64,000 nucleotides of DNA, from NCBI GenBank assembly GCA_022711665.1, contig JAKLEN010000005.1, positions 130,619 to 194,618 on the forward strand. Reading direction: 5' to 3'. The notes beneath the pieces were generated by a model, which was given only the letters and a program-made list of their open reading frames with translations, had not been told where the DNA came from and searched no databases. The DNA comes from Acidobacteriota bacterium (GTDB lineage Bacteria > Acidobacteriota > Aminicenantia > Aminicenantales > Saccharicenantaceae). A program made the position numbers and the translations under genes. Positions 12,078 through 33,027 of the stretch are shown piece by piece; the first letter of the stretch is position 1; each line of letters starts with the position of its first letter.

Positions 12078-12112
12078 GGCGGGGCCGGCCCCGGGGAGAC
12101 GGCCGCTCCGGG

Positions 12113-14768: not shown

Positions 14769-15398
14769 CTAGTGTCCGCCGCTGACCTTGTAGCCCATCT
14801 CCCTCAGCTTGGCCGCCCATCTCTTCTCGGCGGCTTTCGATGCGGCCTGGTCGTAGTACTTGGTTTCGGGGGCCAGGTCCGGGCGCAGGCGCCGGCCGTA
14901 TTTCCGGGCGACGGGGGAGAAGAGCGGCCCGCGCCTGTTCCTCTTGCCCTTGCGGTGCTCCTCGAAGCGCTCTTCGGGGGTCTTTGACGTCTCGCCTACG
15001 TAAACGAACCCTTTTCCCTGGTCTTTGCAGCCCTTGGGGTCGAGCTCGATCACGTAGACCGTCCAGACCTTCGGGTCGCGGTTGACCGTGAATCCCTCCG
15101 ACTTGAGGCACTTGACGGCGGCCCGCTTTTCGCTGTCGGCTTCTTCCCGGAGCAGAAAAGGGCCCGATGTCAGGTCGTCGCGCAGCATGACCAGGTGGTC
15201 CCGAAGCCACTCCGGCCCTTTCCCCTTCAGCAGGGCCGCGAACCGATTCGACGGCTCCTGGGTGGTGATGGCCACATAGAGATTGGGCTTCCCGGGATCG
15301 CGGCGCGGCACGACATCGTCGAGCTCGACCACTAGGACATAATTGCGCGGCTCCCTTATGGACCGCCGCGGGCTTCGCCTATAGAAGCGCTTTCTCAA
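14769..15398 (-). CDS. Tandem GIY-YIG (YhbQ/UPF0213-like) nuclease-domain protein
   Basis: Two consecutive GIY-YIG-like modules (YVLVVEL...LYVAITT...GKG and VYVIEL...FVYVGET...EERFEEH...GKR). Confidence 0.55.
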   Translation of the reverse strand: MRKRFYRRSPRRSIREPRNYVLVVELDDVVPRRDPGKPNLYVAITTQEPSNRFAALLKGKGPEWLRDHLVMLRDDLTSGPFLLREEADSEKRAAVKCLKSEGFTVNRDPKVWTVYVIELDPKGCKDQGKGFVYVGETSKTPEERFEEHRKGKRNRRGPLFSPVARKYGRRLRPDLAPETKYYDQAASKAAEKRWAAKLREMGYKVSGGH

Positions 15399-15711
15399 GG
15401 CTCGTATGCCCCTGCCAGAAGAACTATCACCGGGCGGCGGGGAGTGTCAATGATGCGGGCGCGCGAACCGCAACCTGGGGACACATATCAACGTGCCGCC
15501 AAACCGTGCGCCCGGCCGTCCTCGGCCTGAAGGCGGAAGGGGTCACGGATTTCTTAGAATATTTTTCGGTCGCCGCGAATTTCGACCGCTCTAGCCTGTC
15601 TTTACCATATGAAGCCTGTAGTTTACTCCGGATCAGGTTGTCTGGGAGAGATGCAGAAAACCCAGGTCAACGCCTGTTTACCTGACTTGATGACAGCAGT
15701 TGTCTTATTTC

Positions 15712-15740
15712 TTGACATTTGTCTAACTTTGGGTTTAATT
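15712..15740 (+). promoter_or_regulatory. Candidate promoter (TTGACA-17-TTAATT) with GACA..TGTC palindromic half-sites upstream of the HTH-ImmA regulator gene
   Basis: AT-rich 377-nt intergenic region. Hexamers and two GACA/TGTC inverted motifs (around 15692-15706 and 15714-15723) read from the sequence. Confidence 0.35.
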
Positions 15741-15775
15741 TCCATCGCATCGAGTTTCATGGGGATTTTTAGGGA

Positions 15776-16834
15776 ATGGGGCAGTTTCTGCCGGCCCGTC
15801 TGAAGAAAGCCCGCGAAGACGCCGGGCTGACGCAGGAGAGCTTTGCCCGCTCGCTGGGTCTTTCCTCCGAGTTCATTTCCCTTCTCGAGGCCGGCAAGCG
15901 GGCCCCCTCGCTCGAGACGCTCTCTCGGATCTCCGCCGCTCTCCATAAGGACGCCGCCTTTTTCCTGGGCGATAAGGAGCCGGCCTTTAAAGTCCTGTTC
16001 CGGGCTCCGGCCGTCGAGATCAGCCAGATAGCCCGCCAGGAGCTGGAACGATTCAGACGCTATGTGGACGATTATATGCGTCTCGAGGAAGCGACCGGAC
16101 GCACCCTGGAGCTGGCGCCCCTCTATTCCGGCCGGCTCTCGCCTGAGCGGATGGCCGCCGAAGAAAGGCGCCGCCTGGGCCTCGGGGACGAGCCGGTCCG
16201 CGATATCTTCGCCCTGCTCGAACGCAACGGCCTGCGGATCCTGCGCGGCCCGTTGCCCCCGGCCGTTGCGATCTCCGGCGTTTTCGTCTTCCTCGAGGCC
16301 CGTAACGCCGCTTTCGCCCTTATCAACTCGGCCCAAACCCCGTGCCGCCAGGCCTTCACCGCGGTTCATGAATACTGCCATTACCTCAAGGACCGCAGCG
16401 AGCCGCCGATCATCGATACCCACCGGATCTTCGAGGATGCCGCCAGGCCGAAAGCCGCGCGGAAAGAGGCGCGCTTCGATAAGAAGGATCAGTTCGCCCA
16501 GGAGTTCGCCGCCCACTTCCTGATGCCTCCGGCCAAGGTCCGGGAGATCGTCGAACGGGATTTCGGAGCCGGCCGGCTGTCCTACGACGACGTCCTGCTC
16601 ATCAAGCGCTATTTCGGGGTCAGCGCCCAGGCCATGCTTCGGGCCCTGTGCAATTTGGGGCTGCTCACCGCCGGCCGGCATCAGGAATATGCCCGGCTCG
16701 ATCCGGTTCAGCACGAAAAGAGAGTGTTCGGCGGAACCGACGAGGACTATGGGCCGGGATCGGGGCTTGATTCGGCTGGGATCGTCGTTTCCGACCGGTA
16801 TCGCCTGATGGAACGGGAGGTCTCATCACAATAG
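15776..16834 (+). CDS. Fused XRE-family HTH / ImmA(IrrE)-family zinc metallopeptidase regulator (COG2856-like)
   Basis: N-terminal HTH_XRE (LKKAREDAGLTQESFARSLGLSSEFISLLEAGKRAPSLETLSRISAAL). C-terminal HEXXH (HEYCHY) within an ImmA/IrrE-like domain. Confidence 0.8.
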   Translation: MGQFLPARLKKAREDAGLTQESFARSLGLSSEFISLLEAGKRAPSLETLSRISAALHKDAAFFLGDKEPAFKVLFRAPAVEISQIARQELERFRRYVDDYMRLEEATGRTLELAPLYSGRLSPERMAAEERRRLGLGDEPVRDIFALLERNGLRILRGPLPPAVAISGVFVFLEARNAAFALINSAQTPCRQAFTAVHEYCHYLKDRSEPPIIDTHRIFEDAARPKAARKEARFDKKDQFAQEFAAHFLMPPAKVREIVERDFGAGRLSYDDVLLIKRYFGVSAQAMLRALCNLGLLTAGRHQEYARLDPVQHEKRVFGGTDEDYGPGSGLDSAGIVVSDRYRLMEREVSSQ

Positions 16835-16972
16835 TGAGCGATATGAAATTACTAAATGTGCAATGCAGGCCTCAGGCAGGGAGACTGACTTGATTTAGCC
16901 CCCATTAATAAGCAATGCTTTTGGAAAGATTGTAAGCAGCAGATCAAGATTCGATAATAATAGCCAATTGGA

Positions 16973-18502
16973 ATGGGGTTTTCTATGCCTAAGACAAAAG
17001 CCTATGGGCAAGTAGTTCAATCACAGAAATATGAAATTGCTGATCCCAGGCCAAGCGCTCTAATCGAATCGCTTAGGTCTGTAGGATATAAGCTTTCCAC
17101 AGCGATCGCCGATATCGTTGATAACAGCATTGCGGCCGATGCAAGAAACATTTGGATACGTTTTAAATGGGCGGGAGCGAAATCGCTCATTTCGATCATA
17201 GATGATGGACGGGGAATGACAGAAAGTGCCTTGGTAGAAGCGATGCGGCCTGGCTCAATTAGTCCGATCGTCGAGCGCAGTCAGACCGATTTAGGGCGTT
17301 TCGGGCTCGGCCTAAAAACAGCGTCCTTTTCTCAATGTAGACGCCTTACCGTTATTTCGCGTAGCAAGGGCTGTCGTGCTGTAACCCGCGTCTGGGACCT
17401 TGATTATGTTGTCCGTCATGATGAATGGCGCCTTTTAAGAAGTGGAGATGAGCTTGAGGAAGGCGTAGCCAGTTTCGCGAAGACTGAGACGGGAACTGCA
17501 GTCATTTGGACACACCTTGACCGAATAATAACGCAAGGTGAGAATGCTAATGACGCGTCTGCACATAATCGATTTAATGATTCCATTGACCAAGTGCGTC
17601 AGCACTTGGCGGTTATTTATCACAGGTTTATCGAAGCTGGAGAGGTCAGGATATTTATAAATAACAATCTTGTTAATGGGTGGAATCCTTATCTAGAAAA
17701 CCATAAAGCTACTTATAGAGCACCTGATGAGATTATTCCTTTCGGGAAATCAAAGATTTATTTTCGTGGTTACGTATTGCCTCACAAGGATATGCTAACA
17801 CATGAACAATACGAATCTGCGGCAGGTCCATTAGGCTGGACAGCACACCAAGGATTTTACGTCTACAGAAACAGGCGACTTCTTGTTCCCGGCGATTGGC
17901 TAGGATTAGGGAGTCCAAAGCCGTGGATAAAAGCAGAGCACTATAACTTGGCACGCATATGTCTAGATATTTCTAATGACGCTGATAATGAATGGCATCT
18001 TGATGTGAAGAAATCTATGGCTCGGCCACCTGCTCTGGTTAAAGAAAGACTAACTGAACTTGCCGAAAACATACGAAAGCGGGCACGATCCGTTTTTGCC
18101 CATAGGGGAAAATATGGAGCACGAATTTCGCCCATATCTGAATATGAAAGGCCTTGGGAAGCAAAAACACGTCAGGGATATCGCATATATAAAATAAACC
18201 GAGGTCATCCTGCCGTTAGCCAGGCAATTCAGGCTGCTGGGACGGCAGCTCCCGATATAGAATCGATGCTGAGGATTCTCGAAGAAACCGTGCCGGTACA
18301 GCAGATATGGCTGGACATCGCAGATCAGACTCAAGACGTTGCTCGTCCATTTATCGGTACCGATTATTCTGTTATACGTTCAGATCTCCGGAAAATCTAT
18401 ATTTTCTTAACAAAGTCCGGAATAGATAGGAATACGGCTCTCGCGCGACTGAAGGCTATGGAACCATACAACCACTATACTAATCTTATTAACGAGCTAT
18501 AA
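16973..18502 (+). CDS. GHKL-superfamily ATPase (HATPase_c_3 / MORC-like)
   Basis: Bergerat-fold motifs: N-box DNSIAADA, G1 box DDGRGM, G2 box GRFGLGLK. First gene of the low-GC operon. An alternative ATG at 16985 is possible. Confidence 0.8.
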   Translation: MGFSMPKTKAYGQVVQSQKYEIADPRPSALIESLRSVGYKLSTAIADIVDNSIAADARNIWIRFKWAGAKSLISIIDDGRGMTESALVEAMRPGSISPIVERSQTDLGRFGLGLKTASFSQCRRLTVISRSKGCRAVTRVWDLDYVVRHDEWRLLRSGDELEEGVASFAKTETGTAVIWTHLDRIITQGENANDASAHNRFNDSIDQVRQHLAVIYHRFIEAGEVRIFINNNLVNGWNPYLENHKATYRAPDEIIPFGKSKIYFRGYVLPHKDMLTHEQYESAAGPLGWTAHQGFYVYRNRRLLVPGDWLGLGSPKPWIKAEHYNLARICLDISNDADNEWHLDVKKSMARPPALVKERLTELAENIRKRARSVFAHRGKYGARISPISEYERPWEAKTRQGYRIYKINRGHPAVSQAIQAAGTAAPDIESMLRILEETVPVQQIWLDIADQTQDVARPFIGTDYSVIRSDLRKIYIFLTKSGIDRNTALARLKAMEPYNHYTNLINEL

Positions 18503-18516
18503 GAACGGAGACAGGA

Positions 18517-21333
18517 ATGGAAACCAATGCTGCCCTAGCCATATGCCAAATATTATTAGGGCAAAAGCGGGCCAATAAAGATGCCGCTATTTGCCGTGAA
18601 GACATATTAGCGGTTGTTGAACAATTCGCCGCTCTAGAACCCGCCAAAGGCATAGATAAAGAGGAATTGGTTAAAACGCTTGAGGAACGTTTCACCGTCT
18701 ATGTGCCGAATCATCTTACTCTCGGATCGGATGACAACCATATTGCTTGGTTGTCGGCAAAACGCAGCTCTATTAATTGGCAATATTGGGAACGTTATAA
18801 AAATTATCTTGAAGGGCTACTCCCACCCGCTGCTGTTGAGGGCGTGGGCAAAACCACGGAGGAAATATTACAGCGCCTTGAAGATCCTTATCGTACGGGT
18901 ATTTGGGACAGGCGCGGCTTAGTGATGGGGAATGTTCAATCAGGAAAGACCGCCAACTATTGCGGCCTCATATGCAAGGCGGCAGACGCCGGATACAAGG
19001 TCATTATCGTCCTTTCTGGAATTCATAATAGCCTGCGTAGTCAGACACAAATTCGATTAGACGAAGGATTTCTTGGATTCATGAGCGAACCGCTGGCTGA
19101 CGGGACGCGGGGTTTTGTCCCCGCAGGGGTGGGCATTAACGGCCCTAGCATCAATCCCAATACTGCTACAAATCGGACGGAGCGTGGTGATTTTAATCGT
19201 ACGATAGCTAGCCAATTCGGAATTCATCCAGGCGGCCTGCCTCTCCTCTTTGTTACGAAGAAGAACGTGAGTGTGCTTAGGAACCTCAACAATTGGATAT
19301 CTTCTTGTATGAATGCCAAAGATCCATCGACGACTAGGCGCTTTGTCAGAGATGTCCCTCTTCTGGTGATTGACGACGAAGCCGATCTCGCGTCGGTAGA
19401 TACGCATTTTCAAGAGCTTGATGAAAACGGCAACCCTGACCCTGATCATAATCCGGCCGAAACCAATAAGCAGATTAGGAAACTCCTACGAGCATTCGAA
19501 AAGGTTGCCTATGTCGCCTATACGGCTACACCGTACGCGAATATTTATATTTATGATAGAGGATTTACGCCCCTATTAGGCGACGACCTTTTTCCTAGAA
19601 GCTTCGTTGTCAGCATTCCTCCCCCGAGTAACTATATGGGTCCTGCGCGTGTATTTGGGATTTCGGAAGACGAAGATGCAGGCCTAGAGGAGGTAACGCC
19701 ATTACCGGTAATACGAAACGTAAAAGATCATGCAGTCAGCGCTGATATGAATGAAACCCGGGGATGGATGCCCCCTCGACTAATCGCCGGAACTGACCAT
19801 ATGCCCCGTTATCTGGGAGAACGACGTATACCTCCGACATTACGAGAAGCAATTCTCTCCTTTATTTTAGCATCGATAGTACGCAAATCTCGTGGCTGTC
19901 TGCCCGCACATAATTCTATGCTCATCCATGTCGTCCGCTATACAAAGGTTCAAAAGCTTGTTTCAGATCAAGTAGAAGAAACTCTCCGCGAGATAACACA
20001 GCGCCTGAGGTATGGGGACGGCAGCCGCCGTCCGACGATAACCGATGAGTTCCGGAATCTTTATCTTAAAGATTTCAAGAAAACGACAGAAAGCTGTAAT
20101 AAAATCCTAAACGACAGGCTCGAGCTTCCAGTCTGGACAGCAATCACGCCGGCCTTGCTATCTACAGCGACGAGCATAAAAGTAAAGATTATTAACGGTA
20201 GCGCTGGGGATGTTCTAGATTATGAAGAGAATAAGAAGACTGGGATGAACGTGATCGCTATTGGAGGAGACAAACTCTCGCGCGGGCTAACTCTTGAGGG
20301 TCTTTCCATCAGCTATTTTTTACGGGCTTCTCGTATGTACGATACGTTAATGCAGATGGGGCGGTGGTTCGGCTATCGTGGGCAATATATTGACATTTGC
20401 CGACTCTATACTACTTCAGAGCTAATAAAGTGGTTTGCTCATATCACTGCAGCAGCAGAGGAGCTTCGGCATGAGTTTGAACGGATGGTATCTGTGGGCG
20501 GTACGCCGAAAGATTATGGACTGAAAATCCGTGCACACCCTGCCCTATTAGTAACATCGGCTGTTAAGATGCGTCACGGGACTTCAATGAGGATATCTTT
20601 TTCTGGCGAGATTAGTGAAACGATAATATTCCAGCGGGAACCTTGGTGGGTCCTAAGTAATTATGATGCGACCGTAGGTCTGCTTTCTAGCCTGCCAATG
20701 GAAAAATATTTAGGGTTTCGTAATTCCGGTTATACATGGCAAGAAATTCCCATAGAGACGGTACTTCAATATTTGAATGAGTACAAGACTCACAATGATG
20801 TCCGTCGGGCGGACACCGCGTTGCTGGCAAAATATATCCGGGCACAAAACGAAAATGGTGAATTAGCTAAATGGACCATTCATTTGTGCTCTTCAGGTAA
20901 AGCTGACGCAATACGTGAAGCAATAGGCAATCAGAAGGTTGGCCTTATTATGCGCGCGCCATTCCCTCAGCCTTATGACCCGCAAGCGGATCGATATACA
21001 ATCAGACGGCTGGTAAGCCCGACTGATGAACTTGTAGATTTAAGCAAAGAACAGCAGCAAGAGGCAATTCGGTTGACTCAAGAACGATGGAAAGCTGAGC
21101 ATAGAATGGGCGAGCCGGAAAGAGCAGGCGGAAGGGAGATACGTAAGGTCCGTGATAAGAACAACGGATTATTGCTTCTATATCCCATCGGGCCGCCTAG
21201 CTTTTATCCTGCCGGAACGAAGCCAATTATAGGGATGGCCATTAGTTTTCCAAAGAGCGACACCGCAAAAGAAGTGATTTATACAGTGAACAATGTGTTT
21301 ACGCAGCAGGGCGGAGATGATGAAAGCTTCTGA
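18517..21333 (+). CDS. Z1-domain protein (large P-loop NTPase, 938 aa)
   Basis: Walker A GNVQSGKTANY and a Walker B-like LLVIDDEAD. The size and position next to AIPR, GHKL and Dcm genes match the Z1 family. GGAG RBS upstream. Confidence 0.75.
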   Translation: METNAALAICQILLGQKRANKDAAICREDILAVVEQFAALEPAKGIDKEELVKTLEERFTVYVPNHLTLGSDDNHIAWLSAKRSSINWQYWERYKNYLEGLLPPAAVEGVGKTTEEILQRLEDPYRTGIWDRRGLVMGNVQSGKTANYCGLICKAADAGYKVIIVLSGIHNSLRSQTQIRLDEGFLGFMSEPLADGTRGFVPAGVGINGPSINPNTATNRTERGDFNRTIASQFGIHPGGLPLLFVTKKNVSVLRNLNNWISSCMNAKDPSTTRRFVRDVPLLVIDDEADLASVDTHFQELDENGNPDPDHNPAETNKQIRKLLRAFEKVAYVAYTATPYANIYIYDRGFTPLLGDDLFPRSFVVSIPPPSNYMGPARVFGISEDEDAGLEEVTPLPVIRNVKDHAVSADMNETRGWMPPRLIAGTDHMPRYLGERRIPPTLREAILSFILASIVRKSRGCLPAHNSMLIHVVRYTKVQKLVSDQVEETLREITQRLRYGDGSRRPTITDEFRNLYLKDFKKTTESCNKILNDRLELPVWTAITPALLSTATSIKVKIINGSAGDVLDYEENKKTGMNVIAIGGDKLSRGLTLEGLSISYFLRASRMYDTLMQMGRWFGYRGQYIDICRLYTTSELIKWFAHITAAAEELRHEFERMVSVGGTPKDYGLKIRAHPALLVTSAVKMRHGTSMRISFSGEISETIIFQREPWWVLSNYDATVGLLSSLPMEKYLGFRNSGYTWQEIPIETVLQYLNEYKTHNDVRRADTALLAKYIRAQNENGELAKWTIHLCSSGKADAIREAIGNQKVGLIMRAPFPQPYDPQADRYTIRRLVSPTDELVDLSKEQQQEAIRLTQERWKAEHRMGEPERAGGREIRKVRDKNNGLLLLYPIGPPSFYPAGTKPIIGMAISFPKSDTAKEVIYTVNNVFTQQGGDDESF

Positions 21334-22348
21334 GGAACTAATTCAGATATGGAACCTTGTTATGGAAGACAAGGGGGATCTACCAGGCTATTATTACCGC
21401 AGGATGCAGAAAGAGCTTCCTTTCCCCGTTTATGCTGGGATTATTAATCCAGGACGTTTGCGCTGTATTTCTATATTGGTGGATACAGAAGCTCTTGGCG
21501 TTGCTGCTCAGCGAGACGAAACAAATGGTTATTCCGTAAGAATTGAGTTGGCAGAAGCTGGCACACATAAGTCATTCATTCACCTCGCCTCAAGAATGGA
21601 GGCAGGGAATGATGAATTATTCGTATTCCTATGCGCTGATTTGCTTGGGTTATGCCGTTCGGATATGGAGGGCCACAAGGCTGTCGCCGCAATCTTTCAC
21701 CGACTATCTTATTGGCGTCGATTTTTTCAGCGACATGGCGGAGGATTGAGCAGAGAAGAAATCATTGGTCTTTATGGAGAACTCCGATTTCTTGAATTAT
21801 TGCTTGATTATGGAGTTCCGTCAGAATTAGCAGTCATGGCATGGAAGGGACCCCTTGGAACAAATCAGGATTTTCTCTTTGGTTCTAAAGCAGTGGAAGT
21901 GAAGTGCACGACTGCCAATGAAGCAGATATTGTAAAAATTACTAGTGAGAGGCAGCTGGATTCTACTGGGCTAACAACACTATTCCTTTTTCATCAAGCC
22001 TTTGACTTCCGGGAGAATTCTGGGAGAACATTAAAAAAGCTTATCGGTGATATTAAGAAGCGTCTAGAAGACACATCGCCGCACGCAATAATCCTATTCG
22101 AGGAATTACTTATTTCGGCCGGATATTCGGGCGAGTATAAACCTGTTTTCGACAACTATGGGTTCACGGAAAGGAAGCAATCGGCGTTCGAAGTCCAGCC
22201 AAGTTTCCCACGTATCGATGAGACAGCACTACCTGGTGGAGTTTCCCGTGTATCCTACCAATTAGATTTGGCTGTCTGCCATAAGTATAGGATTCATATT
22301 GAAGCGATCTTTCGTGCTTTAATGACTGGAGAGCAGAGTGGACAATGA
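21317..22348 (+). CDS. PD-(D/E)XK-superfamily nuclease (predicted)
   Basis: D...EVK core (QDFLFGSKAVEVKCT). Start ATGATG overlaps the Z1 stop by ~17 nt (track ORF begins at 21293). Translational coupling is suggested. Confidence 0.6.
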   Translation: MMKASEELIQIWNLVMEDKGDLPGYYYRRMQKELPFPVYAGIINPGRLRCISILVDTEALGVAAQRDETNGYSVRIELAEAGTHKSFIHLASRMEAGNDELFVFLCADLLGLCRSDMEGHKAVAAIFHRLSYWRRFFQRHGGGLSREEIIGLYGELRFLELLLDYGVPSELAVMAWKGPLGTNQDFLFGSKAVEVKCTTANEADIVKITSERQLDSTGLTTLFLFHQAFDFRENSGRTLKKLIGDIKKRLEDTSPHAIILFEELLISAGYSGEYKPVFDNYGFTERKQSAFEVQPSFPRIDETALPGGVSRVSYQLDLAVCHKYRIHIEAIFRALMTGEQSGQ

Positions 22349-24419: not shown

Positions 24420-24422
24420 GCT

Positions 24423-25979
24423 ATGACGATTACAAAGTACCCCATTCCCGTTATTGATCTATTTGCCGGTCCAGGGGGACTTAGTGAGGGATTCTCTTCC
24501 TATGAGGAAGGATCTACTTTTTGTGTACGGCTTTCAATTGAAAAGGACAGATTCGCTCATCGGACTCTTGAGTTGCGGGCATTCTTTCGTAGTTTCGACG
24601 AAGATCCTCCCTCTGAATATTATAATTACCTTAAACATCAAATTAGTCGCGAAGAGCTATTCAAGATGTTTCCGACGCAAGCCAATAAGGCCAGGAACCA
24701 AGCTTGGCAGGCTGAACTAGGGAACAGGAAATATCCCAAAGCTCAGGTAGATAAGAAGATCAGGACTGCTCTGGGAAGACATGGTGACCGCTGGGTTCTT
24801 ATCGGAGGTCCTCCCTGCCAAGCTTATTCACTCATCGGCCGCTCTCGGATAAAGGGAAAGAGTATTAAGGATTATGAATCCGATAATCGCCATTTTTTAT
24901 ATCGCCAATATTTGAAGATATTGGCTGAACATAAGCCTCCTGTATTTGTAATGGAAAACGTAAAGGGATTATTATCCACGGAAATTAACGACCAGAGGAT
25001 TGTCGAACATATCCTCCGCGATTTACGGAACCCTAGTCAAGCAGTACGGAATAGTTCAAAGCATAATGGTGCCGAATATGTACTTCATTGTTTAGCGCCG
25101 ACAAAGAAGCAATACACAGAACTGACTCCTGAGGACTTTATCGTAAAGTCTGAGGCATATGGAATACCGCAAACGCGTCACAGGATCATTTTACTGGGAA
25201 TCCGAGCCGACGTACGCGTAAAACCAAAACACTTGATACCACAAGAAAGCACATTGTCGGTCGAACAAGCGATTGGAGATGTTCCGCCCGTAAGGAGCGG
25301 CATATCAAGAATGATTGATTCTTATGAACGATGGCTAGCGGTGGTTCGTAGCATTACTCGCTCTGAATGGCTAAAGGAGGGGGCTGTTACGAAAGAGATT
25401 CGTGGCGCTATAAAAGCCGTAGCAGAAAGCCAAAATCTGGCTTTTTCTCGGGGGGGGGAGTTCGTGAAAACTGTAGCTGCCCCCCAAATAATGGCGGAAT
25501 GGTTTAGGGATACCAGACTGCGCGGCGTATGTAACCATAGCACTCGCAGACATATGGAGAGTGATTTGCATCGGTATTTATTCGCTTCAGCATATGCGCA
25601 AGTTAATGGACATTCCCCACGACTGATTGATTTTCCGAAGGGATTGTTGCCAGATCATGCCAATGTCGGAGATGCGATCCGCGACCGGAAGTTCGGGGAT
25701 CGTTTTCATGTCCAAGTATCAAACCGTCCTGCATCCACGGTCACGGCCCATATATGCAAAGACGGTCACTATTTTATTCATTATGATTCAAAACAATGTC
25801 GTAGTCTTACGGTTCGTGAAGTAGCACGTCTGCAGACATTCCCAGATAATTATTTCTTTGAAGGGCCGAGGACTGAACAATATAGACAGGTCGGAAATGC
25901 GGTACCGCCGTTATTAGCTATTCAAATTGCCGATATTGTTGCGGGGATTTTTTATCAGGCTGGCAACCAAAAGGCATAA
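24423..25979 (+). CDS. DNA (cytosine-5)-methyltransferase, Dcm-type
   Basis: Motif I DLFAGPGG, motif IV GGPPCQAYS, motif VI ENVKGL, motif X VGNAVPP. Starts 3 nt after the AIPR stop. Confidence 0.95.
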   Translation: MTITKYPIPVIDLFAGPGGLSEGFSSYEEGSTFCVRLSIEKDRFAHRTLELRAFFRSFDEDPPSEYYNYLKHQISREELFKMFPTQANKARNQAWQAELGNRKYPKAQVDKKIRTALGRHGDRWVLIGGPPCQAYSLIGRSRIKGKSIKDYESDNRHFLYRQYLKILAEHKPPVFVMENVKGLLSTEINDQRIVEHILRDLRNPSQAVRNSSKHNGAEYVLHCLAPTKKQYTELTPEDFIVKSEAYGIPQTRHRIILLGIRADVRVKPKHLIPQESTLSVEQAIGDVPPVRSGISRMIDSYERWLAVVRSITRSEWLKEGAVTKEIRGAIKAVAESQNLAFSRGGEFVKTVAAPQIMAEWFRDTRLRGVCNHSTRRHMESDLHRYLFASAYAQVNGHSPRLIDFPKGLLPDHANVGDAIRDRKFGDRFHVQVSNRPASTVTAHICKDGHYFIHYDSKQCRSLTVREVARLQTFPDNYFFEGPRTEQYRQVGNAVPPLLAIQIADIVAGIFYQAGNQKA

Positions 25980-26066
25980 TGACTCATACATTTCCCAAGA
26001 CCGCTTTTGCCCATCTTAGCAATTCATGTGCATAACCTCCAATATGGGGAGCACGATATCTTAGAA

Positions 26067-26513
26067 TTAGCCGGGACACCTATCGGCTTCCTTTTTAATA
26101 TTAGGTTTTCGCCGGACTAACTGAAGAAGCCGTATTTTCCATTCGGGATTTTCCACCTCGCATTCCCATATTGTGAAATAAGTCCATCCCAATACTTGTA
26201 CCTTCTGGGCAATCTCAATATCCCGCCTTTGATTCTCAACGAATTTCTTTTTCCAAAAATCAGTTCTTGACTTTGGCATGTATGCATACTTACATGATTT
26301 ATGCCGATGCCAGTAACATCCATGAACGAATATTGCAATCTTGTATTTTGGAAGTAAGATATCGGGGGATCCCGGCAAGATACCGGGAGTCAAAGAAAAA
26401 CGAAATCCCATGTGATGTAGCTGCGAACGAGTTCGGATTTCGGGCATAGTATTTCGTGACCTAATCCTTGACATATTCCAACTGCGCTTTGCCGGGGGAA
26501 TTCGGTCAGTCAT
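26067..26513 (-). CDS. vsr: Very-short-patch-repair endonuclease
   Basis: FVHGCYWHRH and TxPExRxxL motifs. 148 aa. Convergent with the methyltransferase gene. Confidence 0.95.
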   Translation of the reverse strand: MTDRIPPAKRSWNMSRIRSRNTMPEIRTRSQLHHMGFRFSLTPGILPGSPDILLPKYKIAIFVHGCYWHRHKSCKYAYMPKSRTDFWKKKFVENQRRDIEIAQKVQVLGWTYFTIWECEVENPEWKIRLLQLVRRKPNIKKEADRCPG

Positions 26514-26965
26514 TCATAAGCCACCCGTTTTTTAGATTAACAGGATAGCTTATATAGAACAAGAAGCTATGAGACAATGAAATTCCGTCCGTGATGGAGA
26601 TAAAAAGCCTCCGCATGGAACATTGGCCAACTTCCAGACCAACGGTGAATTCCCCATGACGACTGCCAATTGTTCAGGGTCTGGGCATATATGAATAATT
26701 TTATTCGTAAGCGCGAAAACATACTGCTTTGCGGTGTCGTTCCCTTATGGGAACGGGCGTATAGGGGGGCTGCCTGAGGGAATGGGCCTCGTGGGCTTGG
26801 CCCTAGCCGTAAGGCGGGACGAAAGATCATGACGAAATGAGCGCTACGGAGAGCTACGGCATTTAACCCAGGGGCGGGTCCTCCCGCGACTGGCCGGAGT
26901 CCGAGCAGGAGGTCTATTGGCGCCTGGATGGGTCGCTGCCGGAGGACTGGACTGTCTGGCACTCG

Positions 26966-27409
26966 ATGAGGGTCCGGACGACCGGCGCGGAGTTCGCCGA
27001 ATCGGACTTCATCATCACCGACCCCGCCCGTGGCGTCCTCGGCCTTGAGGTCAAGGGCGGCCTCCTCGACAAGAAGGACGGCGCCTGGCGGCAGAACGGC
27101 CAGGCCATGAGATCCTTGCCGCTCGACCAGGCGCACCGCTTCATCATGTTACTCCTGGCCAAGTTCAGGGAAAAGGATCGTATCTCGCCGCCGATCGGCG
27201 TGGCCGCCGCCTTCCCGGACACAGATTTTGAAATCCCGGCCTCCCAGGGCGACCTTGTCGCTGATGTCGCGCCCGGGACCGGCCGGTATGCGGTGCGGAT
27301 GAACATCACCGTCAGCCGGGCTTGCGGCGCCCTACGGATCGTCATTTCCCGCAGCGAGCTCGATAAGGACCCGATCCTGAAGCGCCTCGCCGAGGACGGA
27401 AGGAGATAG
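26966..27409 (+). CDS. NERD-domain protein (PD-(D/E)XK-like nuclease-related domain)
   Basis: DFIITDP...GVLGLEVKGG core. Intermediate GC. The upstream frame is closed by TAA at ~26864, so 26966 is the only ATG start. Confidence 0.5.
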   Translation: MRVRTTGAEFAESDFIITDPARGVLGLEVKGGLLDKKDGAWRQNGQAMRSLPLDQAHRFIMLLLAKFREKDRISPPIGVAAAFPDTDFEIPASQGDLVADVAPGTGRYAVRMNITVSRACGALRIVISRSELDKDPILKRLAEDGRR

Positions 27410-28357
27410 GTGCCGATGGCATTTGATCGTGTTCATGACGCCCGCATCAGGGCCGCGGCCTTCGAGTGGCTGACGGATCAGGTTCTGCGGCATGGAGACG
27501 TGCTGCCCCGCAGCCTCCTGGTCCAGGGATTCTATTTCGGGGACTCGAGGGTTCCGCTGGTCGGCCCGCAGGGGATCTTCAAGCCTCGCATCCTCGAGCT
27601 GCCGCTGTCGATTACGACGGCGCCGGAAGGCCCCTATAACGATGCCTTCGGCCCGGATAAATTGCTGCGCTACCGTTACCGGGGGACCGACCCGGACCAT
27701 AGAGACAATCGGGGGCTGCGGGAGGCCATGGCGAACCGGTTGCCGCTGGCTTATTTCCATGGGATCGCGCCCGGACGATATATGGCGGCTTGGCCTGTCT
27801 TCATAGTCGGCGACCATCCTGATCCATTCTCGCCGTCGTTCTCGGTAGCTGTCGATGACAAGGGGCATTTGGGTGTCGTCGCCGAGGACCGAAATGAGCG
27901 TGGCGCCGTGGGCGAGGAAGGCGATACCGCCCGGCGGCAATACATAACGTCCACCGTTCGGGTCCGGCTCCACCAAAGAGCCTTCAGGGAGCGCGTGCTC
28001 GAGGCCTATCGCCGGCAATGCGCGTTCTGCCGGCTCAGGCATGAGGAGCTGCTCGACGCCGCCCACATCATTCCGGACGCGAGCCCGGAAGGCGAGCCCG
28101 TGGTCCAGAACGGGCTGGCGCTGTGCAATCTCCATCATGCGGCGTTCGACAAGTTCTTTATCGGGGTGCGGCCTGACTACGTCATCGAGATCCGCCCGGA
28201 TATCCTGAGAGAGGGGGACGGTCCAACGTTGAGGCACGCGATCCAGGGGCTGAACGGGACGAGCATCCTGGTGCCCGAGCGGCTGAGTCTAAGGCCGGAT
28301 CAAGCGCTCCTTTCGAAGCGTTATGAGCGGTATCGCGAGGCCGCCCGGGAATACTAG
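27410..28357 (+). CDS. HNH endonuclease, COG3440/HNH_2-like (candidate modification-dependent type IV restriction enzyme) with uncharacterised N-terminal domain
   Basis: C-terminal CAFCRL...LDAAHIIP...NGLALCNLHHAAFD HNH signature. ~200-aa N-terminal domain (GIFKP...YRYRGTDPDHRDNRGL). The likely ATG is at 27416, preceded by GGAAGGAGA. Confidence 0.75.
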   Translation: MPMAFDRVHDARIRAAAFEWLTDQVLRHGDVLPRSLLVQGFYFGDSRVPLVGPQGIFKPRILELPLSITTAPEGPYNDAFGPDKLLRYRYRGTDPDHRDNRGLREAMANRLPLAYFHGIAPGRYMAAWPVFIVGDHPDPFSPSFSVAVDDKGHLGVVAEDRNERGAVGEEGDTARRQYITSTVRVRLHQRAFRERVLEAYRRQCAFCRLRHEELLDAAHIIPDASPEGEPVVQNGLALCNLHHAAFDKFFIGVRPDYVIEIRPDILREGDGPTLRHAIQGLNGTSILVPERLSLRPDQALLSKRYERYREAAREY

Positions 28358-28442
28358 GTGCCGGAATGCGCATGGTTCACGCGCGCTCCCGGGTGGATGA
28401 CAGGATTGAGCCGGGGGCCCTTGCGAGCATAAGCAGATATCG

Positions 28443-28943
28443 CTAGGCCCGAAGCAGGGCCGAGTAGATGGCGTGGTCGGCGGCCGAGAAGCAGCAGAAT
28501 GTCACTTCGATCCCGCAAGCCGGGTGCCCGTCGAGGAATTCCCGTACGGCCTTGACCGCGACCGCGGCCGCGAGCTCTATGGGATAGCCGTAGACGCCGG
28601 TGCTGATCGAGGGGAAGGCGATCGACCGTACGCCGTTCTCAAGAGCAACTTCGAGCGACTTGAGATAGCAGCCGCGGAGGAGTGCAGGCTCGTTCGCGCG
28701 GCCGCCCCGCCAGACGGGCCCGACCGTGTGGATGACGAACCTGGCCGGGAGCCTGTAGCCCTTCGTGATCTTGGCCTCGCCGGTCGCGCATCCTCCGAGG
28801 GTGCGGCATTCGGCGAGTAGCTCGCGTCCCGCGGCGCGGTGGATGGCCCCGTCGACGCCGCCTCCGCCGAGGAGCGAGGCATTCGCGGCGTTGACGATCG
28901 CGTCGACCTCGAGGGTCGTGATGTCGGCGACGACGGCTTTCAT
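28443..28943 (-). CDS. Macro-domain protein (YmdB-like O-acetyl-ADP-ribose deacetylase / ADP-ribose hydrolase)
   Basis: [23 protein letters not shown] and [15 protein letters not shown] motifs. 166 aa. Confidence 0.85.
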
Positions 28944-29089
28944 TTATGCCTCTCTTCGGGGCCTTCCTTACTCTAGGGGCGGAACGCGGGGCTGTCAAAT
29001 CGTTCTGCAGCCGGGCCGTCCCAGGCGACGCGTTGAGACGATCGAATCCGAGACGGGCGCGGGCCGCGAAAAGGCCGGGGAAATCGCCT

Positions 29090-29118
29090 TTGACAGCAAG
29101 ACGCTATAACGCTATGAT
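29090..29118 (+). promoter_or_regulatory. Sigma70-type promoter of the TA operon (TTGACA-17-TATGAT) with ACGCTAT direct repeats overlapping the spacer/-10
   Basis: Hexamers and the repeated ACGCTAT(A/G) read from the sequence. GGGAGGG RBS before the ATG at 29136. Confidence 0.5.
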
Positions 29119-29135
29119 GTTTAAGGGAGGGCAGA

Positions 29136-29369
29136 ATGACTGGTTCAAACAAGCGCGTGACGATCTATCTCAAGCCGGAGTTCCATAGGGCGCTGAAGGT
29201 CAAGGCCGCGGAAACCGAGTATTCCATCTCCGACCTGGTCAATTCGGCCGTCAAGCGGGCGCTCCTCGAGGACGCCGTCGATCTCGAGGCCTTCGAAAAG
29301 CGGGCTGGAGAGCCGCTGCTTGCCTTCGAGGACGTCGTCAGGGACCTCAAGCGCCATGGAAAGCTATAG
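29136..29369 (+). CDS. Type II antitoxin (RHH/CopG-like fold predicted)
   Basis: 77-aa acidic protein immediately upstream of, and overlapping, a ParE/RelE toxin gene. The N-terminal KRVTIYLKPEFHRALKVKAAE pattern fits a ribbon-helix-helix antitoxin. Confidence 0.55.
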   Translation: MTGSNKRVTIYLKPEFHRALKVKAAETEYSISDLVNSAVKRALLEDAVDLEAFEKRAGEPLLAFEDVVRDLKRHGKL

Positions 29370-29616
29370 GGTCCTTGTCCGGAGGTCCGCGGCCGGAGAG
29401 TTGGCGGACATCCCGAAAAAGGACCTGGCCCGCGTCGTCGCCAGGATCGGCAAGCTGGCCTTGCAGCCGAGGCCCGACGGATGCGAGAAGCTCTCCGGGC
29501 AGGAGAGATACCGGGTCAGGCAGGGGGACTATCGAGTCGTCTACTCGATCGATGACGAGAACCGGGTCGTCGAGATCGTCAAGATCGGCCGCCGCAGCGA
29601 GATCTATCGGCGATAA
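29356..29616 (+). CDS. ParE/RelE-family toxin
   Basis: YRVVYSIDDENRVVEIVKIGRRSEIY C-terminal signature. ATG overlaps the antitoxin stop. Confidence 0.75.
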   Translation: MESYRVLVRRSAAGELADIPKKDLARVVARIGKLALQPRPDGCEKLSGQERYRVRQGDYRVVYSIDDENRVVEIVKIGRRSEIYRR

Positions 29617-29629
29617 GCTGGATCGGCCT

Positions 29630-31357
29630 TCATCCGATCTCGAGGATGCGGTCGAGGCGGAAGGTGCGGCACTCGCCGCGGCTGTGGCAGAAGGCGCGCA
29701 GGCCCTCGAAGGTCCGGCCGTGGTACTCCATCATCTCCACTGATTCGGGCCGGATGCGGCGGCGTGACTTCTTGTCGTCGGGCTTGAGGTAGACGATCTC
29801 GAGCTCGCGGCCGTCGCGGATGGCCTCGAGGAGGAGAGCGCGCTTGTCGGCCGGGGGCAGGGCCTGCTCGGCCTTCTTGTACTGGAAGCGGGTCAGGAAG
29901 CGGACGATGCGCCAGTCCATCAGGATGTGAGCGCGGCGGATGGGCGTCCGCAGGACCAGGCCCTCGAACGAGGTGCAGCGGCTCAGGGCGACGTAGACCT
30001 GGCCGTGGGCGAAGGCGCCGCGGCCGATGTCGACGACCACGCGCTCGAAGGTCTTGCCCTGGCTCTTGTGGATGGTCACGGCCCAGGCCAGGCGCAGCGG
30101 GTACTGGGTGAAGGCGCCGACGGCCTCGGAGTCGATGCGGTCCTCCTCGGCGTCATACTGGAAGCGGAAGAGCTCCCAGGTGTTGGGCCCGACGTCGACC
30201 TCGGCGCCGCCGGCGAGCTCGACCGTGACGATGTCGTCGGCGTCGATGTCCTCCGACTTGCGGATGCGGGCGACGCGGCCGATCGTGCCGTTGACCCAGC
30301 GGCCCTTGCGGTCGTTGGTCAGGAGCATGACCTGGGCGCCGGGCTTGAGCTCGAGGGCCTCCTCGGTCGGCAGGGAGCGGCGGTCGAACTCGCCGTCGAC
30401 GAGGCCCTCGTAGCGGCGGGCGTGGCCGCTCAGGGCGGCCAGCTTCTCGCGGTTGCGGGCGGCAGCCAGGTCGTTGGTGCTGGTCAGGGTGATGTAGAAC
30501 CGGTCGTCGGGCGGGACGAAGGCGGAATCGAGGCGGCTGTTGAGAAGGGCGATCTGGGCGTCGTCGATCGAGCGGTTGCGGATGGCGTTGAGCAGGCCGA
30601 TGAAAGCGGCGTCGTTCTGGCGGTAGACTTTCTCCAGCTCGACGAAGTCCATGTCGAAGCCGGGCTCGGCGAAGACGCGGGCCGAGAAAAAGTAGGGCGA
30701 CTCGTAGCGGGGGGCGGAAGCGCCGGACGTCAGGACGGCGGCGGGGGAGGGGCCGGCGTTCCCGGCGCCCCAGCGGCGGAGCGAGACCGGGTCGGGAGCG
30801 AAGAGGCCGCGCTCCTGGCCGGTGACCACGGGCGGCAGCTGGTAGAGGTCGCCGATGAAGATCATCTGCAGGCCGCCGAAGCGCTCCTTGGGGCGCGGGC
30901 CGTTGAGGCGCAGGAACTTCTCGACGCAGTCCATCAGGTCGGCCCGGACCATCGAGACCTCGTCGATGACGATGGCGTCGAGGTTGCGGTACAGGGCGAC
31001 CCGGTCGGCGGCGGCACCGCGGCCCTTGGAAAGCTTGCGCACCGACTCGGGCGTGACGTCGGGCTTGAAGCCGAAGAACGAGTGGATGGTCTGGCCGCGG
31101 ACGTTGAGGGCGGCGACACCGGTCGGGGCCAGGACGGCGATCTTCTTGAGCGTCTGGTTGCGCCAGAGCTCCAGGAGGGTCGATTTCCCGGTGCCGGCCT
31201 TGCCGGTGATGAAGACGTGGCGCGAGGTGCCCTCCATGATATCGAGTGCCCGCCGGAAACCGGGATTGATCTCGATGGCCGGCGCCTTGCCCGGCGTCCG
31301 GCCCGGAGACCGGTCCGGCTCGTCCGGTTTCGGTTTGCGAGCGCTTTTCCTGGTCAT
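29630..31357 (-). CDS. Pif1/RecD-like SF1 helicase fused to C-terminal WYL domain
   Basis: Walker A GKAGTGKST, Walker B IVIDEVSMV, the Pif1 signature LYQLPPVV, and VYVALSRCTSFEGL. The C-terminus ends ...GECRTFRLDRILEIG (WYL-type). Internal ATG (MTRKSARK) chosen as start. Confidence 0.8.
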   Translation of the reverse strand: MTRKSARKPKPDEPDRSPGRTPGKAPAIEINPGFRRALDIMEGTSRHVFITGKAGTGKSTLLELWRNQTLKKIAVLAPTGVAALNVRGQTIHSFFGFKPDVTPESVRKLSKGRGAAADRVALYRNLDAIVIDEVSMVRADLMDCVEKFLRLNGPRPKERFGGLQMIFIGDLYQLPPVVTGQERGLFAPDPVSLRRWGAGNAGPSPAAVLTSGASAPRYESPYFFSARVFAEPGFDMDFVELEKVYRQNDAAFIGLLNAIRNRSIDDAQIALLNSRLDSAFVPPDDRFYITLTSTNDLAAARNREKLAALSGHARRYEGLVDGEFDRRSLPTEEALELKPGAQVMLLTNDRKGRWVNGTIGRVARIRKSEDIDADDIVTVELAGGAEVDVGPNTWELFRFQYDAEEDRIDSEAVGAFTQYPLRLAWAVTIHKSQGKTFERVVVDIGRGAFAHGQVYVALSRCTSFEGLVLRTPIRRAHILMDWRIVRFLTRFQYKKAEQALPPADKRALLLEAIRDGRELEIVYLKPDDKKSRRRIRPESVEMMEYHGRTFEGLRAFCHSRGECRTFRLDRILEIG

Positions 31358-31542
31358 CCCGGGGATTTTCTCCCAAATCAGACGCCGACGCAATCGGTCC
31401 GTTCGTCGGCGCATCGCTTCCGCCGTTCTAGAGGACGATCCGGAGGAGGCGCTTTTCTCACGCCGGCGCCGGGCTTGCGCCAAGTCCGTCCGGTTATGTA
31501 TACTTCCCGTCAATCATCTTCCTTGACGGCACGGGGGCGGAC

Positions 31543-33027
31543 ATGGCGGGATCCATCATCGTCATCGGCGCCGGCGTGGGCGGGCTGGCGGCGGGCATCT
31601 ACGGCCGGATGAACGGCTTCGACACCAAGATCTTTGAGATGAACGCCGTGCCGGGCGGGCAGTGCTGCGCCTGGAAACGGGGCGGCTACACGTTCGACGG
31701 CTGCATCCACCACCTGTTCGGGTGCGCGCCGGGCTCGCGGCTATACGGCCTGTGGCAGGAGCTGGGGGCCATGCCGCGGGCGATGGTCCAGCCCGAGGAG
31801 TGCACCAGCGTCCTGGCGCCGGACGGGCGGCTGTTCCGCGATTATTACGACCTCGACCGGCTGCGGGCCCACATGACGGAGCTGGCGCCGGGCGATGCCG
31901 CGGCCATCGACGAGTACGTTCGGGGCTGCCGGGCCTTTGTCGGCGCGGATCGTCTCGGCGAGATGATGCTCGGGACGGGGGCGGGACGGGCCAGGGCCCT
32001 GGTCGGGATGGCGGCGCGGCTGAAATGGCTGACGCCAACGATGGAAAAATTCGGCCGGCGGTTCAAGGACCTGTTCCTGAAGCGGGCCGTGCCTCAGCTC
32101 GTCTATTCGAATCCCGCGGCGCCGCTCTTCGTGCATCTCGTTCGTCACGGCTATGGCGCGGCAGGATCTCTCCAGTGGCCGAGCGGCGGGACGCTGCCGT
32201 TCGCGCTGTCGATCGCGCGGCGTTACAAGGAGCTGGGCGGCGAGATCGCGTACAGCAGTCGGGTCGAGAGGATCCTGACCGAGAACGGGCGGGCGGTCGG
32301 GGTCCGGCTGGCCGACGGCGGTGAGCACCGGGCCGACGTCGTCATCTCGGACGCGGACGGCCGCAAGACCATCATGGACATGCTCGAGGGACGGTTCGTC
32401 GACGACGGGGTGCGACGGGCCTGCGGCGAGCCGCCGGAAACGACGGCTTGGTCGGTCCACGTCTATCTGGGCGTCAAGCGCGATCTGACGGGCGAGCCGT
32501 CGGCCATGATCATGCTGCTCGACGAGCCGGTCGAGATCGCCGGGCACCGCTGCGAGACCCTGGAGATGCAGATCTACGGCTTCGACCGGACGATGGCGCC
32601 GGCGGGGAAGAGCGTCATCAAGGCCGAGCTCTTCTCGGACTACTCGTACTGGAAGCGCCTGGCCGGGGATCGGGCCCGATACGAAGAAGAGAAGGCCCGG
32701 GCGGCCGACCGGACGATCGACGTGCTCGAGCGGCGTTGGCCCGGGCTGCGGGCGCAGGTCGAGACGATCGACGTGCCGACGCAGCTGACTTGGGAGCGGT
32801 ATATGGGCGGGACGCACGGGTTCGCCAATATGCCTGCCAAGAAAGCTTCGCTCTGGTCCGGATTGAAGGGGGCCGGCGGGGACATGACCCTGCCCGGGCT
32901 CGACCGGTTCTATTTCGTGGGGGTGTGGGCCAGCATGTCCGGGTCGCTGTTCGGCAACGCGCTGTCGGGGCGCCGGGCCATCCAGGAGCTCTGCCGGCGG
33001 CTGAAGCGGCCCTTTATCATTACTTGA
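31543..33027 (+). CDS. FAD/NAD(P)-dependent oxidoreductase, phytoene desaturase (CrtI)-like family
   Basis: N-terminal dinucleotide-binding IIVIGAGVGGLAAG motif and CrtI-like length. Confidence 0.75.
   Translation: MAGSIIVIGAGVGGLAAGIYGRMNGFDTKIFEMNAVPGGQCCAWKRGGYTFDGCIHHLFGCAPGSRLYGLWQELGAMPRAMVQPEECTSVLAPDGRLFRDYYDLDRLRAHMTELAPGDAAAIDEYVRGCRAFVGADRLGEMMLGTGAGRARALVGMAARLKWLTPTMEKFGRRFKDLFLKRAVPQLVYSNPAAPLFVHLVRHGYGAAGSLQWPSGGTLPFALSIARRYKELGGEIAYSSRVERILTENGRAVGVRLADGGEHRADVVISDADGRKTIMDMLEGRFVDDGVRRACGEPPETTAWSVHVYLGVKRDLTGEPSAMIMLLDEPVEIAGHRCETLEMQIYGFDRTMAPAGKSVIKAELFSDYSYWKRLAGDRARYEEEKARAADRTIDVLERRWPGLRAQVETIDVPTQLTWERYMGGTHGFANMPAKKASLWSGLKGAGGDMTLPGLDRFYFVGVWASMSGSLFGNALSGRRAIQELCRRLKRPFIIT

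Follow-up and report, generated by a model that had tools for sequence, protein, structure and literature searches.

Defence islands and chromosomal defence hotspots are said to go back to Makarova et al. in 2011 and to later hotspot studies, and the original description of mzaABCDE is reportedly that of Gao et al. in 2020. The mzaABCDE genes are among the recently identified nuclease-containing antiphage systems, and in E. coli mza gives anti-T4 protection, with nuclease activity of MzaD (bioRxiv 10.1101/2022.06.16.496414). MzaA is reported in just some related systems. Operons that combine a GHKL ATPase, a superfamily II (SFII) helicase, a restriction endonuclease (RE)-fold nuclease, an AIPR protein, Dcm and Vsr were predicted to be restriction-modification (RM) systems in 2008 (Iyer, Abhiman and Aravind; PMC2292703). 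Here we describe a stretch of 64,000 nucleotides (the window) from an uncultured member of Candidatus Aminicenantes (GenBank assembly GCA_022711665.1, contig JAKLEN010000005.1, positions 130,619 to 194,618), in which a low-GC cassette of MzaB, MzaC, MzaD, MzaE, Dcm and Vsr lies among nuclease, toxin-antitoxin (TA) and regulator genes. We conclude that the region from ~12.4 to 29.6 kb of this ~69% guanine-plus-cytosine (GC) chromosome is likely to be a variable-region hotspot that was filled in several steps.

Reading frames were picked by third-codon-position GC (GC3) and products were named with Pfam, PADLOC and NCBIfam, which together recovered, item by item, every gene listed in an initial annotation of this DNA (Table 1). 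That annotation had also described heterogeneous GC around a low-GC core, and the heterogeneity is real; for the core, GC3 and dinucleotide distance place it far beyond chance. The window has ~69% GC with a trough of 43-49% between ~17 and 26.5 kb, and the core averages 46.1% (43-48% per gene, rather than the ~43% first given) against 68.8% for the remainder of the window. The background was set by 25 genes outside the island, with a GC3 of 0.911 +/- 0.029 and a minimum of 0.83. The six core genes have GC3 values of 0.39-0.47 (z -15 to -18) and codon-usage z scores of -8 to -10, and the dinucleotide distance of the core from background is 133, compared with 31 +/- 4 for equal-sized background chunks.

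The genes on either side of the core form further tiers. The fusion of an XRE helix-turn-helix to an ImmA peptidase (HTH-ImmA), the HNH protein and the RHH antitoxin have GC3 values of 0.79, 0.76 and 0.79 (z -4.2, -5.1 and -4.0), under those of all background genes, and GIY-YIG, ParE, NERD and Macro are near the bottom of the native range (0.84-0.86, z about -2 to -2.5). The Pif1-WYL helicase, at 0.93 (z +0.5), is native. HTH-ImmA had been assigned 68-70% GC, but it measures 64% and so belongs to the intermediate tier; the GIY-YIG, NERD, HNH and TA genes, put at 53-62%, measure 59-66%. As blocks, the island flanks of the core have 62.0% and 64.2% GC and dinucleotide distances just 1 to 2 standard deviations (SD) above background. 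Composition changes sharply at ~16.77-16.83 kb, at 26.73 kb and at 29.64 kb, the last coinciding with the ParE/Pif1-WYL boundary. Composition thus shows sharp steps and three GC3 tiers, which supports successive insertions. Intermediate GC is nevertheless an unreliable age marker for island genes, because the GIY-YIG and HNH orthologues of relatives, with GC3 values of 0.75-0.80 and 0.55-0.60 beside native-looking genes at ~0.9, lie equally far or further below the GC3 of their hosts.

Loci from relatives, here given by L numbers, were fetched with CrtI, the HNH protein and HTH-ImmA homologues as anchors. The genes that frame the island are conserved. On the right, Pif1-WYL adjoins CrtI in L002, L003, L005 and L021 (81-84% identity for Pif1-WYL and 77-88% for CrtI), and it also bounds a variable stretch in L035 and L042 (81-85%), with CrtI not seen within the fetched stretch. 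Because of its native GC3 and this conserved synteny, Pif1-WYL is best read as a native border gene that forms the right edge of the hotspot, not as cargo. On the left, MetK, a kinase, orf123 and orf83 occur in the same order in L043, L115 and L116, with identities in L115 of 85%, 63%, 41% and 66%, respectively. The variable zone starts after orf83 at ~12.4 kb, which is further left than the ~14.7 kb originally proposed.

Between these frames the cargo differs in L002/L116, L003, L004, L005, L021, L035, L042/43 and L115. Upstream of Pif1-WYL, L002 carries RHH-ParE, SEC-C, SWIM/DUF6880, ZIP and peptidase S15 genes; L003 carries a NERD-helicase, a PD-(D/E)XK nuclease and a metallophosphatase; L005 carries GIY-YIG (71%), an HD domain, an HTH-Panacea TA, a PD-(D/E)XK nuclease and GH106; and L021 carries GH106 and unknown genes. 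L035 reads GIY-YIG (74%), low-GC genes, a Schlafen-like helicase, HNH (79%), a nitroreductase and Pif1-WYL (85%). In L042/L043 the kinase, orf123 and orf83 are followed by an ADP-ribosylglycohydrolase, GIY-YIG (72%), an HNH paralogue, HNH (74%), a nitroreductase, GH106 and Pif1-WYL (81%). L116 and L002 lie on the same contig, JAXDAV010000058.1, so that the kinase-to-CrtI interval spans ~55 kb there. Its contents are known from the two ends, the middle ~23 kb falling outside the fetched sequence: the left end holds MazE-PIN, an Apyc1-like metallo-beta-lactamase, AbiEi/AbiEii, Phd-PIN and HicB, then HTH-ImmA followed by AAA_14/DUF4143, HNH_2 and a type I RM set, and the right end holds ParDE, SEC-C, SWIM/DUF6880, a ZIP transporter and an S15 peptidase. 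The island on this contig is much larger than that of the window, at the same locus.

No Mza genes were found at this locus in the related Aminicenantes loci fetched. GIY-YIG, HTH-ImmA, HNH, ParDE and NERD each recur at the locus in some relatives, at identities (GIY-YIG 71-74%, HTH-ImmA 67-74%, HNH 74-79%, RHH/ParE 84%/77%, NERD 69%) comparable with those of the flanking genes Pif1-WYL (81-85%) and CrtI (77-88%). GIY-YIG stands at the left edge of the insertion zone in the window and, with unchanged orientation, also in L005, L035 and L043, and the RHH/ParE pair stands ~7.4 kb from Pif1-WYL on the Pif1-WYL/CrtI contig of L002; L005 retains a 47-residue ParE fragment. Across the metK...crtI interval the relatives thus share the frames and differ, in every genome, in the cargo. 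Conserved flanking genes with differing cargo in related genomes are what marks a hotspot; uniform gene presence and order were clearly not seen, and the comparison supports successive insertions.

Gene decay adds to this picture. In BLASTP the NERD open reading frame (ORF) matches an intact 568-residue protein of L053, and does so only over residues 11-144 and 512-556 of that protein. An in-frame deletion of ~367 codons has removed the whole P-loop helicase core, and an in-frame TAA at 26864-26866 lies nine codons past the likely original start. Judged by these alignments, the gene is a dead remnant of a NERD-helicase. Intact NERD + AAA_30/UvrD proteins are present in L041 and L053, and in L039 (where the contig includes only the 3' end), L040, L041 and L053 an intact NERD-helicase gene immediately precedes the HNH orthologue, which points to a former two-gene unit whose first gene is dead in the window. 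Such decay fits an older layer of the island. The ORF at 26567-27136 (-) was taken as spurious, since it has no family match, overlaps the NERD remnant and is called in no assembly.

The second gene of this unit, SRA-HNH, joins an N-terminal SRA fold to a C-terminal HNH nuclease in fold comparison, with low confidence for the HNH half of the model. Only fold comparison was informative here, as searches of the HNH and GIY-YIG proteins against PDB sequences gave no matches. We suggest that SRA-HNH is probably a candidate type IV, methylcytosine-dependent restriction endonuclease. A copy with 91% amino acid and 86.5% nucleotide identity lies on a contig of ~52% GC (L122, 4812-5759), where genes for a DUF87 ATPase and an N6/N4 methyltransferase precede it, and nucleotide homology between the window and L122 is limited to the HNH gene. 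Either the gene moves alone, or L122 is this hotspot, filled with other cargo, in a close relative.

The core itself can be identified from its genes as a known type of defence cassette, MzaBCDE with Dcm and Vsr in an MzaA-less form. MzaB, MzaC, MzaD and MzaE are intact and contiguous on the + strand in canonical order, with PADLOC profiles matched over nearly their full length; Dcm follows directly after MzaE, and Vsr is separated from Dcm by 87 bp. No match to MzaA was found upstream of MzaB, where HTH-ImmA stands instead. A canonical mza operon on the Neorhizobium plasmid NZ_CP123001.1 starts with a sigma-70-family MzaA and stands beside a Dcm/Vsr/restriction endonuclease set and an HNH gene. 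Among the cassettes sampled, L029 and L032 are the closest; they share the B-C-D-E-Dcm...Vsr order, have 50-53% GC and carry no HTH-ImmA upstream. Their Mza proteins and Dcm are only 47-77% identical to those of the window, and Vsr is 40-60% identical. The cassette would act as an ATP-dependent, RM-like system, in which Dcm would mark host DNA and Vsr would repair T:G mismatches arising from deamination of 5-methylcytosine at Dcm sites. A consensus scan found a promoter-like site inside the insert upstream of MzaB (16930-16958 (+), TTGTAA-17 nt-GATAAT), which is a pattern match only.

The L029 and L032 loci have features of their own. Between Dcm and Vsr, L032, the nearest Mza-Dcm match, carries an AspBHI-like (SRA-type) Mrr nuclease split into two ORFs (11313-14488), with an IS481-family transposase shortly downstream, and the pairing of Dcm with a modification-dependent nuclease is therefore not unique to the window. 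L029 has an additional HATPase_c_3 gene (698 residues) and a 377-residue gene between Dcm and Vsr (17718-20965), and phage-like genes (lambda Ea47-like, SWIB, DksA/TraR zinc finger) upstream of the cassette (1-8000).

A drop of 23 points in GC within the contig of a metagenome-assembled genome (MAG) is a classic warning sign for a chimera, and the low-GC block might be ascribed to metagenomic misassembly or to a binning chimera. The same DNA, however, is present in ENA ERZ27257455 as contig k141_727932 (339 kb) and in NCBI GCA_035390205.1, and overlaps are 100% identical across five independent assemblies from different runs (these two and the Logan assemblies SRR18360463, SRR4244739 and SRR5007146). 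The left junction is spanned by L118 and L119 and is covered in the ENA and SRR4244739 assemblies, and the right junction is spanned by the NCBI contig and Logan contigs SRR18360463_82022 and SRR4244739_33572. With five identical assemblies jointly covering both junctions, we reject misassembly, and we regard a chimera of either kind as improbable in the extreme. Logan short-read contigs from three runs stop at 28871, 30047 and 30076, in the macro gene and Pif1-WYL, and are identical up to these breaks, which could be due to strain variation or a drop in coverage. Given a contiguous locus, the whole of 14.7-31.4 kb might still have arrived as a single mobile genomic island, as its contiguous and mostly defence-like genes would allow. 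This we consider very improbable: the composition falls into three tiers with sharp steps, differing gene subsets recur in different relatives and the core in none, Pif1-WYL is native and syntenic, and NERD has decayed while all core genes are intact. The hallmarks of an integrase-mobilised genomic island (an integrase or recombinase, a tRNA or att site, direct repeats) were absent as well.

A closer competitor holds that only the Mza-Dcm-Vsr core is foreign and that the flank genes are long-standing natives whose GC3 was lowered by weak expression or gene-specific constraint, giving two layers rather than many. The GC3 of GIY-YIG, ParE, NERD and Macro within the background range, the small dinucleotide distances of the flanks and the presence of orthologues at the same locus in relatives, at identities like those of core genes, all agree with it. 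It does not account for HTH-ImmA, HNH and RHH, whose GC3 falls below every background gene, nor for HNH in particular, which is as low as 0.55-0.60 in relatives beside neighbours at ~0.9 and has its 91% copy in an unrelated context; moreover, each flank gene is found in only some relatives and the cargo is different everywhere, a patchiness that requires several gains or losses. We therefore think two layers unlikely. A different emphasis would make HTH-ImmA a regulator-anchored landing site, or would see in the island a conflict between Dcm and SRA-HNH, and we treat these two ideas, jointly, as speculative, with a small chance of being right.

Based on the composition steps, the comparative loci and the decay of NERD, we favor the proposal of the initial annotation that several insertions of different ages, not one event, built the island at one hotspot. 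We infer that the hotspot lies between a left frame of MetK, kinase, orf123 and orf83 and a right frame of Pif1-WYL and CrtI. An older layer of intermediate to near-native composition would comprise GIY-YIG, HTH-ImmA, the NERD-helicase followed by SRA-HNH, and ParDE, and the native-looking M28 peptidase and macro genes would be placed with it. The NERD-helicase would later have been inactivated by the early stop and the ~367-codon deletion. The young layer would be a single 9.9-kb block of 46% GC that landed between the HTH-ImmA stop codon and the NERD remnant, so that the unameliorated Mza-Dcm-Vsr block would be the latest gain. Without an integrase, a tRNA or convincing repeats, its entry was probably by recombination.

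Several points weigh against this scenario. None of the island ORFs has an integrase or transposase domain in Pfam, and the window contains no tRNA; Rfam and tandem-repeat scans also gave nothing. Exact k-mer comparison found no significant flanking repeats at the edges of the core or of the whole island. The sole edge match was a 10-bp inverted repeat, CCTCAGGCAG / CTGCCTGAGG, at 16870-16879 and 26770-26779, no more than ~40 bp from either composition boundary; with ~0.2 such matches expected by chance it is non-significant alone, and we rejected it as a boundary site. An empty site was not found, since 14 of the 14 contigs with the exact HTH-ImmA also carry Mza, so the insertion event itself was not observed. 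Searches of metagenomes, plasmids and phages gave no near-identical donor of the core: the closest MzaC elsewhere is 70% identical, plasmid matches are below 47% and phage matches are at most 36%. The 91% HNH copy in an unrelated context means that older residents may not be strictly vertical, and intermediate GC may reflect gene-pool exchange or gene-specific constraint, not age. The relatives, finally, belong to other species and are known from incomplete MAG contigs, so some loss of synteny could be ordinary rearrangement.

HTH-ImmA shares its strand with the foreign core, which it directly precedes, and similarity to homologous loci stops at its stop codon. The protein is intact, with the HEYCH (HExxH) motif kept in alignment, and matches PADLOC RmrA (1.2e-32) and capP (7e-15), suggesting an RmrA-like (Rosmer antitoxin) or CapH-CapP-fusion-like regulator. 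RmrA is the antitoxin of RosmerTA (PMC10440598). Fusions of CapH to CapP are on record beside DISARM, and CapH and CapP are described as divergent (bioRxiv 10.1101/2022.04.27.489752). A regulator of that type pairs an HTH repressor with an M78 peptidase beside the operon that it controls, which is derepressed upon cleavage. By the RosmerTA criterion of an adjacent cognate toxin, none was found downstream: the stop codon is 138 bp from MzaB, with no small ORF and no terminator-like site there, and neither junction spacer of the core contains a credible small ORF. Homologues in L120 and L121 have downstream ORFs of 146 and 114 residues. A promoter-like element (15712-15741 (+), TTGACA-17 nt-TTTAAT) precedes the gene, and its TTGAC box and the bases downstream are conserved when the sequences ahead of the gene in the window, L114, L115 and L116 are aligned.

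In the three Aminicenantes genomes that carry it (the window, L115 and L116), HTH-ImmA is the left edge of lower-GC foreign DNA, and the homologues of L115 (74%) and L116 (67%) both follow the MetK/kinase/orf123/orf83 frame. The same-strand cassette after it is different each time: Mza-Dcm in the window, SNF2...DUF1156 in L115 and AAA_14/HNH_2/type I RM in L116; on the ~51% GC contig L114 it is Hsp70-UvrD-DEAD-SMC. Incoming cassettes may thus be captured behind a resident, stress-responsive switch and put under its control. In L120 (7001-10229), a 54% identical HTH-ImmA and orf146 abut a convergent Pif1-WYL (65% identical), an arrangement that may represent the locus in a minimal or ancestral state. 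We rejected the idea that HTH-ImmA, NERD and HNH were one module split by the core, because NERD-helicase/HNH loci elsewhere are without HTH-ImmA and HTH-ImmA homologues have other downstream partners.

The newly acquired Dcm lies ~1.4 kb from the resident, apparently intact SRA-HNH, and the predicted activities of the two may be in conflict within the island. Any such conflict might have been settled if the two proteins recognise sites that do not overlap, or if the nuclease lost its helicase partner, of which the NERD remnant is left.

Table 1. Features of the locus, in window coordinates.
Feature	Position	Strand	Basis and remarks
MetK	7705-8865	-	Conserved left frame; gene call and Pfam
Ser/Thr kinase with TPR repeats	9050-11677	+	Conserved left frame; gene call and Pfam
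orf123	11706-12077	+	Conserved left frame
orf83	12113-12364	-	Conserved left frame
M28 peptidase	12561-14687	+	Pfam; GC3 0.93; inside variable zone
GIY-YIG nuclease-like protein	14769-15398	-	Pfam on residues 112-203; GC3 0.84
HTH_3 (XRE) + Peptidase_M78/ImmA fusion	15776-16834	+	Pfam, PADLOC
Low-GC foreign core	16835-26740		9.9 kb, 46.1% GC; change points, dinucleotide distance, GC3
MzaB, GHKL/MutL-like (paraMORC-type) ATPase	16973-18502	+	Pfam HATPase_c_3 1.5e-29; PADLOC MzaB 2e-129
MzaC	18517-21333	+	PADLOC MzaC 1e-231
MzaD, DUF4420 PD-(D/E)XK nuclease	21293-22348	+	Pfam 9e-65; PADLOC MzaD 5e-30
MzaE, AIPR protein	22338-24419	+	Pfam AIPR_N and AIPR; PADLOC MzaE 7e-105
Dcm, C5 cytosine DNA methyltransferase	24423-25979	+	Pfam DNA_methylase 1e-42; NCBIfam dcm 134.9 bits (cut-off 100.65)
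Vsr, very-short-patch repair endonuclease	26067-26513	-	Pfam Vsr 3e-25; PADLOC Vsr
NERD-helicase remnant	26837-27409 (NERD ORF 26966-27409)	+	Weak NERD match; BLASTP; translation
SRA-HNH protein (Pfam HNH_2)	27410-28357	+	Appears intact
Macro-domain protein, O-acetyl-ADP-ribose deacetylase (YmdB) type	28443-28943	-	Pfam Macro 5.5e-47; NCBIfam NF001664 232.9 bits (cut-off 200); GC3 0.86
ParD-like RHH antitoxin	29136-29369	+	Pfam RHH matches below cut-offs; GC3 0.79
ParE toxin	29320-29616	+	Pfam ParE_toxin 1.7e-10
Pif1-like SF1B helicase with C-terminal WYL	29630-31513	-	Pfam; GC3 0.93
CrtI-family FAD oxidoreductase	31543-33027	+	Conserved right frame; Pfam and NCBIfam

The initial annotation held that nearly every gene of the island is of a defence type. 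Judged from the gene list, defence, RM and TA genes do dominate, with MzaBCDE, Dcm/Vsr, SRA-HNH, ParDE, the RmrA-like protein, the NERD remnant and GIY-YIG as the recognised members, but Pif1-WYL is a native border and Macro looks housekeeping. The macro protein scores above the cut-off of the NCBIfam equivalog model of O-acetyl-ADP-ribose deacetylase, and its composition is near-native; it is probably a housekeeping protein and need not be a defence gene. The initial annotation's description of a tandem GIY-YIG protein is defensible, as the translation contains two motif copies, 'YVLVVELD..LYVAIT..RF' and 'VYVIELD..VYVGET..RFEEH', of which only the second, in the C-terminal half, matches Pfam. 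The RHH and ParE genes overlap, and their order fits a ParDE type II TA system. Between the macro and ParD-like genes are two near-consensus sigma-70-like promoters, at 28970-28998 (-) with 10/12 matches and at 29090-29118 (+) with 11/12, which point away from each other.

The M28 peptidase looks native by its composition, and tblastn found no counterpart in any relative's locus fetched; at its position relatives carry an ADP-ribosylglycohydrolase. The latter gene occurs shortly after orf83 in L043 (2626-3402), L115 (4185-4958) and L116 (2725-3498) and near HTH-ImmA in L121 (4401-5171), and enzymes that reverse ADP-ribosylation, including the macro protein of the window, seem to be recurrent residents of the hotspot. 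Beyond the right frame, the longest ORF of a Tricorn-like protease (33633-38042 (-)) has 1469 residues, compared with 1116 in the gene call of the source assembly; the N-terminal extension is probably spurious and depresses the apparent GC3 to 0.83, the background minimum.

We suggest that the locus is a clean, well-bounded case of defence-island assembly in a little-studied, uncultured phylum, with a conserved frame, older and partly decayed residents and an unameliorated 9.9-kb newcomer in one place. It makes available for testing an intact Dcm-linked, MzaA-less Mza variant and a naturally occurring case in which a cytosine methylase and a putative methylcytosine-dependent nuclease are neighbours, and it serves as a warning that intermediate GC is undependable for dating island genes.

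Compared with mzaABCDE, the window has MzaB, MzaC, MzaD and MzaE, all intact and in canonical order, but it is without MzaA and has Dcm and then Vsr after MzaE, as in L029 and L032. With the operons of Iyer and colleagues (PMC2292703) it shares the domain set and the association with a cytosine methylase and Vsr; those operons were predicted from gene neighbourhoods, and the Dcm-linked form is without a biochemical model. The SRA-HNH modification-dependent restriction endonucleases TagI, ScoA3IV and TbiR51I (PMC4333417, PMC6212794) differ from the protein described here in that the latter has no detectable sequence similarity to any PDB chain, and in other genomes its gene is often preceded by that of a NERD-helicase or a Schlafen-like helicase, or by an HNH_2 paralogue. 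HTH-ImmA resembles RmrA and the CapH-CapP fusions in uniting an XRE HTH with an M78 domain, in its intact HExxH motif and in its place directly upstream of a defence cassette, but unlike RosmerTA it has no small toxin gene after it in the window, and unlike CapH/CapP, described as divergent, it is on the same strand as the cassette. Relative to described defence islands and hotspots, the locus lacks a visible integrase or mobile-element backbone, is hosted by an uncultured Aminicenantes and contains interspersed housekeeping-like genes (the M28 peptidase and macro genes here; GH106, ZIP and nitroreductase in relatives). It is like them in clustering unrelated defence, TA and RM genes between conserved core genes, in cargo that varies between related genomes and in atypical composition, and as an ordinary example of island build-up it leaves current concepts of defence islands unchanged.

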